This document shows positions 1 through 7,994 of a stretch of 8,240 bases of DNA, piece by piece. The stretch lies in IMG/VR virus record IMGVR_UViG_2693429529_000001. The stretch is one strand, 5' to 3'. The stretch is from a virus. Lineage: Duplodnaviria; Heunggongvirae; Uroviricota; Caudoviricetes. The notes below the pieces were generated by a model. That model was not told the DNA's origin and searched no databases. It saw nothing but the letters and a program-made list of their open reading frames with translations. Numbering within the stretch: the stretch's first letter is position 1; every line of letters starts with the position of its first letter. The translations under genes were made by a program, and so were the position numbers.

Positions 1-266
1 ATCACCGGATAAATCCGGGACTCCATCCACGCATCCAGCTCTGAATCCGGCACCTGAGCAGGCAGGAAAACTTCGATATGCAGCTCCGCCTGCCAGGTAT
101 CGCTGTCCAGCTCTTCGCCCGTGTATTCAGCGCCGGTGAGATAAACGGCAACTGCCGGAAAATCCGCCTCATCAAAAACAGCGGGGCGACCATCAAAAAA
201 CGTCGCCCCGGTGTCATGCTTCTCCAGTGCATCCAGTACGGCTGCACGGAGTTCAGTATGTTTCAT
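1..266 (-). CDS. U: Tail terminator protein gpU, N-terminal part (about 88 codons; continues past window position 1)
   Basis: Hand translation from ATG at 266..264 gives MKHTELRAAVLD, matching my recollection of the lambda gpU N-terminus. The start overlaps the Z stop as ATGA (263..266), as in lambda. This frame is not in the ORF track because no stop falls inside the window. Confidence 0.8.
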   Translation of the reverse strand, partial: MKHTELRAAVLDALEKHDTGATFFDGRPAVFDEADFPAVAVYLTGAEYTGEELDSDTWQAELHIEVFLPAQVPDSELDAWMESRIYPV

Positions 267-841
267 CGCTTTATTACCATCCTCAGTTGATGCTGCAGCG
301 CATAGCCCAGCTCTTTCGGAAGACGTTCACGCCGTATCCGCTCAATATTTTGTTTAAACGCCGTGGTCAGCGGCACCGCCATCGGGATTTTCACCACATC
401 AATGGGGTAACGGTTTTTCCCGGCCACACGCTGCATGACATGCCACCGGCCATTTTTCAGTTGCTGAATAAACGCGCCGGGAATACGACGGTTACCCACC
501 ACAAGCACGCTGCCGCCACCTTTCAGGGATGAACGCTGCCCCTTTTTACGACGCCTGCGGCGCGAAAGGACAACCCGCGCATTACCCAGCCTGATTACGG
601 GCAAATCCCCCCGGTTAACCTTGATTCTGGCCTGCGGATTTTTGACCGTGGCCCTTTTCAGCCTGGCCCTTTCCTTTACCAGTTTCCGGCGTACCTTTGT
701 CTCACGGGCAACCTGTGACACCGACTGCGATATCGCGGATGAAGCAACGCGGTTAATGGCCATTGCGGCGGCACCGGGCACCGCCGTTCTGCTGATACGG
801 CTGAGGTTTTCAACGGCCTGCTCAAGACCTTTTATGGCCAT
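263..841 (-). CDS. Z: Tail assembly/completion protein gpZ (192 aa)
   Basis: The 192-aa ORF (MAIKGLEQAVENLSRISRTAVPG...) has the length expected for lambda gpZ (579 bp with stop), an ATG start at 841..839, and sits between FII and U with the Z/U ATGA overlap. Confidence 0.85.
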   Translation of the reverse strand: MAIKGLEQAVENLSRISRTAVPGAAAMAINRVASSAISQSVSQVARETKVRRKLVKERARLKRATVKNPQARIKVNRGDLPVIRLGNARVVLSRRRRRKKGQRSSLKGGGSVLVVGNRRIPGAFIQQLKNGRWHVMQRVAGKNRYPIDVVKIPMAVPLTTAFKQNIERIRRERLPKELGYALQHQLRMVIKR

Positions 842-1206
842 ACATCCCCCTTCCAGCGGCGACGGTTAACGGCAGGCGGTACGCCCCGCCCAAGCCAGAG
901 ATGACAGCTTCCGCCATCATCCGGCGAAATCCGGTCTATCCAGAAGTTTTCCTCACCGATGGTCAGCGTGTCGCCGCGCCGCAGCTGCCGCACATCATCA
1001 GTCCGGACAAACAGGGACGGGCTGGAGCCTTCAACGCGCACGCCCTGTCCGGCATAGCTGATATTTTCAGGGTCATCAAAAACACCACGTATCACAGCAC
1101 CGGACTGCTCACCGGATGTCATGGTGGCTGACGTTCCCATGTACCCGCGTATCGTTTCATCGGCGCAGGCAATGGCAGCATCGAACAGGTTATCGAAATC
1201 AGCCAC
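832..1206 (-). CDS. FII: Head-tail joining protein gpFII, here 124 codons with a 7-aa C-terminal extension relative to the 117 aa I recall for lambda
   Basis: ORF begins MADFDNLFDAAIACADETIRGYMGTSAT..., which I recognise as gpFII. The start codon is GTG (1206..1204), preceded by GGGAGG 11 nt after the FI stop. The ORF ends ...AVNRRRWKGDVWP with TAA at 834..832, overlapping the Z start by 10 nt. Confidence 0.8.
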   Translation of the reverse strand: MADFDNLFDAAIACADETIRGYMGTSATMTSGEQSGAVIRGVFDDPENISYAGQGVRVEGSSPSLFVRTDDVRQLRRGDTLTIGEENFWIDRISPDDGGSCHLWLGRGVPPAVNRRRWKGDVWP

Positions 1207-1217
1207 AGCGCCTCCCG

Positions 1218-1613
1218 TTATTGCATTCTGGCCAGGCCGCGCTCTGTCATTTCAGCTGCCACACCGGCAGAGACACGGAACGCCGTTCCCGGCAGCACAA
1301 ATGCCACAGCCTCATCCCGCGTGGCGTGAAGTGCATCAGTATGCAGCGTCACCAGTGCCACAACCGTGACCAGATCAGCCGTATCAGTCACGGTATCCGG
1401 CTGCGCTGATACAACCTCATTTTCATGTCCGGTCAGCGCATTTTCCGGGCTGACAGATGTGTCCTGACCGGCAGCGTCATCCGTGTCATCAAGCTCCTCT
1501 TCCAGCTCTGCCACACGGAGTGCCAGTTCTTCTTTCGTCCCCGTCAGGCTGACATCACGGTTCAGTTGCTCACCCAGCACCTGAAGACGGGCAATCAGTT
1601 CATCTTTCGTCAT
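1218..1613 (-). CDS. FI: DNA-packaging protein gpFI (131 aa here)
   Basis: From ATG at 1613..1611 the ORF reads MTKDELIARLQVLGEQLNRDVSLTGTKEELALRVAELEEELDD... and ends ...AAEMTERGLARMQ, matching lambda gpFI as I recall it. A GGAGGAG Shine-Dalgarno lies at 1617..1623 (minus strand). The 41-nt gap to the E stop matches the lambda map. Confidence 0.85.
   Translation of the reverse strand: MTKDELIARLQVLGEQLNRDVSLTGTKEELALRVAELEEELDDTDDAAGQDTSVSPENALTGHENEVVSAQPDTVTDTADLVTVVALVTLHTDALHATRDEAVAFVLPGTAFRVSAGVAAEMTERGLARMQ

Positions 1614-4397: not shown

Positions 4398-7994
<3,597 letters not shown>

Follow-up and report, generated by a model that had tools for sequence, protein, structure and literature searches.

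In phage lambda the head-tail joining protein gpFII is a chain of 117 residues (UniProt FII_LAMBD; PDB entries 1K0H, 2KX4, 8K37, 8XOW, 8XPM and 8XQB). Its gene (7612..7965 in NC_001416) ends on a TGA stop codon and is separated by a gap of 11 nt from the start of Z at 7977; the junction reads cgccgcTGAaagggggatgtATGgcc. Other neighbors in the late operon (Z-U with its ATGA, W-B, A-W) form overlapping, coupled pairs, in which the stop codon lies a few bases past the next ATG. The cryo-EM structure of lambda resolves residues 4-117 of gpFII, ordered to the last residue, and places the C-terminal loop (residues 108-117) in electrostatic contact with the O-loop (residues 25-37) of the adjacent gpU (PMC10721106).

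The stretch of DNA analyzed here, referred to as the window, comprises 8240 nt and was identified by an exact-protein look-up as the entire contig CYEK01000061.1 of the draft assembly GCA_001286265.2. It holds a lambda-type late-gene block on the minus strand, with nu1 (partial), A, W, B, C/nu3, D, E, FI, FII, Z and U (partial) in an order collinear with lambda positions 1-9000. The two ends of the contig (1..8240) fall inside nu1 and U. Breaks of this kind are characteristic of short-read assemblies when the genome contains several near-identical lambdoid prophages, and the contig could thus be a collapse of more than one copy.

The FII-Z junction

The features at and around the junction are the following:

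1..266, minus strand: U (tail terminator), first 88 codons including the O-loop, cut by the contig end (88/88 residues identical to lambda gpU)
263..841, minus strand: Z (tail completion protein), coding sequence of 192 aa with its ATG at 841..839 (ORF list; PF06763, 274 bits; 189/192 residues identical to lambda gpZ)
832..1206, minus strand: FII (head-tail joining or stopper protein), coding sequence of 124 aa including the 7-residue extension (ORF list; PF05354; alignment to lambda gpFII)
835..855, minus strand: the seven added codons, WKGDVWP, from the old FII-Z spacer and the first bases of Z (direct reading, ORF list, protein alignment)
846..852, minus strand: putative Z Shine-Dalgarno core AAGGGGG, here inside the FII coding sequence (identical in lambda and in the window)
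853..855, minus strand: TGG codon (Trp118) at the place of the lambda TGA stop, the changed base being 853 (direct reading against lambda)
1218..1613, minus strand: FI (DNA packaging chaperone), coding sequence within the shared FI-FII-Z-U haplotype block (gene call; contig 6628..7023, reversed)

FII sits between FI and Z, as in the lambda late operon. The likeness to lambda includes the order FI-FII-Z-U, the Shine-Dalgarno sequence and ATG of Z, and the sequences of gpW and of the first 88 residues of gpU, which are identical. The gene product matches the Phage_attach family PF05354 with 70.1 bits (E=2.6e-19, cut-off 26), and its residues 1-117 align with residues 1-117 of the lambda gpFII chains 1K0H and 8K37 (E=1.6e-74), to which they are 96% identical. 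The canonical gpFII has 117 residues and ends in RRR, whereas the window protein has 124, with WKGDVWP following the RRR. This departure in length is an allele difference and not a family difference.

Read directly, the minus strand runs ...gtt aac cgt cgc cgc TGG aag ggg gat gta tgg cca TAA, with the TGG at 855..853, the TAA at 834..832 and NRRRWKGDVWP as the end of the protein. The sole difference from lambda at the junction is an A to G change in the third base of the stop codon (position 853 of the plus strand). The new stop codon of FII is formed by codons 2-4 of Z (gCC ATA Aaa), 7 nt downstream of the Z ATG, and in place of the 11-nt gap of lambda the two genes overlap by 10 nt (832..841). 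In agreement with the original prediction, FII has thus lost its TGA stop to TGG, has gained seven residues and overlaps Z by 10 nt; the lambda map given there for comparison, with an FII of 117 aa ending 11 nt before Z, matches NC_001416.

Translation of FII would run seven codons on, through the ribosome-binding site and the ATG of Z, before reaching the TAA. The motif AAGGGGG probably represents the Z Shine-Dalgarno sequence, judging from its match to the consensus AAGGAGG and from its spacing to the ATG. Its conversion into FII coding sequence had also been proposed from the outset and is borne out, and the same holds for the first codons of Z. As the tail is read from pre-existing Z signals, the length and the sequence of WKGDVWP are a by-product and do not represent a designed peptide. 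The stop loss is a deterministic single-base difference. Chance is therefore not at issue; what matters is whether the difference reflects an error or natural variation.

Occurrence and spread of the TGG allele

Allele counts were obtained with two 57-mers differing only at the stop-codon base, and with a 29-mer for IMG/VR. Among complete E. coli genome records, in which STEC genomes are over-represented, 196 contain the exact TGG 57-mer and 1855 the exact TGA 57-mer; TGG accounts for about 10% of the junctions in chromosomes. The 84 isolated-phage records that hold the junction, a small and redundant sample, gave 62 exact matches to TGA and none to TGG, and in the IMG/VR viral contigs the exact 29-mer was found with TGG twice and with TGA at least 120 times. 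At least 40 complete E. coli chromosomes match the window at 100% over the 601 nt that surround the site; their source isolates come from pigs, cattle, humans, an otter and a fish.

At the protein level, the exact 124-aa sequence is present on at least 1000 contigs, under the name MULTISPECIES head-tail joining protein [Enterobacteriaceae]. In complete genomes PGAP annotates it as an ordinary CDS of 375 nt that overlaps Z (WP_000752961.1). The window FII is identical to this RefSeq protein and to UniRef A0A0F3VHN9, a 124-aa E. coli prophage head-tail joining protein, and the overlap with Z is the same as in the window in every annotated genome examined. The search for natural gpFII homologues of about 124 aa, which had been proposed as a check, was thus positive (196 complete-genome records, at least 1000 contigs, one RefSeq protein). 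The accompanying caveat, that TGG and a 124-aa FII might simply be the normal state, applies to many close relatives, where they are the annotated norm, but not to lambda itself with its TGA and 117 aa. Hence, the window FII is an already catalogued, natural stop-loss polymorphism of a prophage lineage and is not peculiar to the window. Our literature searches returned structural papers on gpFII and no functional study of the TGG allele.

Equally abundant is a 117-aa form that agrees with the window FII in residues 1-117. This parent allele (UniRef A0A0G9FQJ4) shares all 117 residues with the window, including C14, M29, D71, I90 and I93, which set both apart from lambda. It keeps the TGA and is the form found in isolated plaque-forming phages. 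The lambdoid phages Perceval and Lambda_2E9, which carry it, are 99.2-99.5% identical to the window over 601 nt. TGG is the derived state, since a length of 117 aa prevails overwhelmingly among the FII homologues of Salmonella, Citrobacter, Klebsiella and others. One record, MW057783.1 ('Campylobacter phage CJLB-4', 48,361 nt), has the lambda FII-Z junction, with one mismatch to the TGG 57-mer, and annotated FII and Z genes; despite the Campylobacter name, the genome appears to be of lambda type.

Over the 1390 nt of the FI-FII-Z region, each of seven TGG copies shows 0-2 differences from the window. Among the TGA copies, the closest have 3 differences and those that follow at least 14. The TGG copies examined represent one near-identical haplotype, so the allele probably arose once and recently. 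The carriers differ by only 0-4 mismatches in the 1743 nt of the FI-FII-Z-U block, and by 1-5% in adjacent late segments: in A15 the identity drops to 97.2% in V-G-T and to 94.7% in J, and in EC01307 to 96.8% in H. The prophages themselves are also diverse. Six of the sampled carriers are integrated at argU-ompT (DLP12) and one, EC01307, at ydfJ (Qin), where it has Qin-type early and lysis genes; a restriction of the allele to the argU prophage was rejected on the basis of this carrier. The argU carriers comprise at least two early regions, a lambda-like one with exo/bet/gam (STEC1585) and a yfd-type one (KV7, A15), which brings the TGG carriers overall to three kinds of early region and two integration sites. 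A near-identical block within diverged backbones, three early regions and two sites points to spread by homologous recombination. The pattern is that of the usual lambdoid mosaic, in which a short TGG-bearing block has been moved around.

A second, independent loss of the FII stop codon was found in Logan contig SRR16828820 (1501-1875), in an FII that is 63% identical to that of the window. CAG takes the place of the stop codon, and the gene ends cgg CAG gga gga atg tta tgt cca TAA. The resulting tail, QGGMLCP, also has seven residues, because the FII-Z spacing and the ATAAAA in Z are conserved; the case is represented by a single contig. A natural extension of another kind is seen in a Salmonella lineage, whose FII ends in RRRRG and is 2 residues longer (112 contigs).

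Translation of Z and the contact with gpU

The AAGGGGG core, its spacing and the ATG of Z are identical in the window and in lambda. The changed base adjoins the AAGGGGG on its upstream side and, as judged from the anti-Shine-Dalgarno sequence, neither of its two forms would pair with the 16S rRNA 3' end. The predicted mRNA fold of the 101 nt around the junction is identical for both alleles (-36.4 kcal/mol), again with the changed base unpaired; the idea that TGG remodels an RNA element was dropped, as both alleles share this minimum-energy fold. Compared with shuffled sequences, neither fold stands out in stability (z-scores of -0.09 and -0.42). The suggestion that translation of Z is altered therefore received no support from these calculations.

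Ribosomes translating FII would nevertheless cross the start of Z and terminate 7 nt downstream of its ATG rather than 11 nt upstream. Both distances are within the range of common termination-reinitiation. Z would probably still be made: ribosomes could initiate at its Shine-Dalgarno sequence and ATG, both unchanged, or re-initiate once FII has terminated. Ribosomes reading across the Z start may affect Z output. In its geometry the FII-Z pair of the window resembles the coupled pairs of the lambda late operon, and the Z-U junction of the window is an overlap as well (cgATGAaa). Compared with such coupled phage pairs, however, the FII-Z overlap is a recent by-product of a point mutation and not a conserved arrangement. 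Two general properties of translation bear on the extended protein. A C-terminal proline before a stop codon slows termination. Wild-type tRNA-Trp reads UGA at a low rate, and lambda itself should thus make traces of exactly this 124-aa protein.

In the assembled particle, where a gpFII is expected to form a hexameric ring between gpW and gpU and to let tails join, the seven-residue tail would hang from the C-terminal loop of gpFII that touches gpU. At this interface it could interfere with tail joining. The partner proteins were compared with lambda for compensatory changes, and none was found in gpU residues 1-88 or in gpW, both of which are 100% identical; gpZ is identical at 189 of 192 residues (98%). 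An AlphaFold2 monomer model of the 124-aa FII was of poor quality, with a mean pLDDT of 52.6 and values below 50 for the tail.

Tolerance, decay or adaptation

The state of the surrounding genes ranges from intact to degraded among the carriers. In KV7, A15 and EC01307 all head, tail-shaft and tail-tip genes are annotated as intact, with the gene for tail fibre assembly as the only partial one in EC01307. Relatives from STEC O26/O103, by contrast, have ISCro1 (IS66 family) inside the protease gene C (NZ_CP028112.1, 23304-27970, and O26 records). A rearrangement has split the prophage of RM8385, whose K and tfa genes are also interrupted by internal stops; this clearly defective copy still carries TGG. 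In STEC1585 the tape-measure gene H is frameshifted (NZ_CP129252.1, 30049-32611), whereas it is intact in KV7, whose late region is otherwise almost identical; the frameshift is a recent lesion or else stems from missequencing of a homopolymer. The protein P0134 (EPV4417063.1) is a 124-aa variant ending in WKGDVRP. Judging from the protein, the Trp to Arg exchange changes base 840, the T of the Z ATG (codon TGG, 840..838), and the start of Z would be lost.

The window has a lesion of its own in gene A. At 7640/7641 on the minus strand, an in-frame deletion of 84 nt removes gpA residues 128-155 (SLLALAPWYGKKHRDNTLTMKRFTNGRG), that is, 28 codons within the terminase ATPase domain. No obvious direct repeat flanks the deletion. 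The closest complete genomes all retain the 84 nt, and an exact-protein look-up found the resulting 613-aa gpA only on the window contig, which is recorded in 2 samples. For a 70-mer across the deletion junction, the matches listed among complete genomes were two-piece matches of 154 nt, with a scoring that cannot tell a single piece from two halves. The deletion may be an inactivating mutation private to the window, or else it was introduced by the assembly.

Taken together, we consider it probable that TGG is a stop-loss allele of a lambda-type FII with a single origin, tolerated, that is, nearly neutral or mildly harmful, and spread by recombination among E. coli lambdoid prophages. That it is tolerated is supported by the three carriers with genes annotated as intact, by the presence of the block in several backbones and by the naturally extended RRRRG form in Salmonella.

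It is possible, though we regard it as the less likely course of events, that the stop loss is a decay mutation, which harms head-tail joining or Z expression, mildly or to the point of disabling them, and is kept only because the resident prophages are no longer required to form virions. The allele would then have travelled passively with its host clones, the STEC O26/O103/O111 lineages being sampled heavily, and resident prophages would have exchanged it by recombination. Such a history would fit the contact of the gpFII C-terminal loop with gpU, the lesions in many carriers (ISCro1 in C, the stops in K and tfa, the frameshifted H and the gene A deletion of the window) and the P0134 variant, whose implied loss of the Z ATG would reflect ongoing decay in the lineage. 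It would also account for the occurrence of TGG in none of the 84 isolated-phage records, given its share of about 10% of the chromosomal junctions. This absence is suggestive but not decisive, as the phage isolates are few, redundant and non-random, with only about a dozen independent phages among the closest haplotypes. Conversely, the three carriers with head, tail-shaft and tail-tip genes annotated as intact speak against decay, although annotated intactness is no proof of inducibility. The presence of the block in diverged late regions, with three early types and at two sites, is likewise easier to explain if particles or recombinants are viable.

An adaptive role, with selection favoring the spread of the block because the tail or the new overlap adjusts head-tail joining or the FII:Z expression ratio, seems very unlikely to us. 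A young haplotype in many unrelated strains and prophage backbones would fit selection, and so would the independent stop loss of the same length in a 63%-identical FII. The latter is known from one contig, however, and its equal length follows from the conserved spacing and the ATAAAA in Z. The TGG allele is moreover in the minority everywhere and absent from isolated phages, and the tail was dictated by the ribosome-binding site and start of Z and was never free for optimization. In gpW, in the first 88 residues of gpU and in the Z signals there is no change to match. We give correspondingly little credence to the more specific proposal that the tail at the gpFII-gpU interface, or the reading across the Z start, measurably alters joining specificity or the FII:Z ratio and so aided the spread of the block. 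The possibility that base 853 was missequenced or misassembled was rejected as having a negligible probability: the short draft contig also bears the otherwise unseen 84-nt deletion, but 196 complete genomes share this base and at least 1000 contigs encode the identical protein.

The 124-aa FII is therefore best treated as a widespread natural allele, which annotators should not call an error or a pseudogene. Beyond such annotation housekeeping its importance is slight. The allele is a handy marker for one recombining late-gene block in E. coli prophages, including those of STEC O26, O103 and O111, and it represents a small natural experiment, in which gpFII is lengthened at its C-terminus, at a head-tail interface of solved structure, and a new gene overlap arises.
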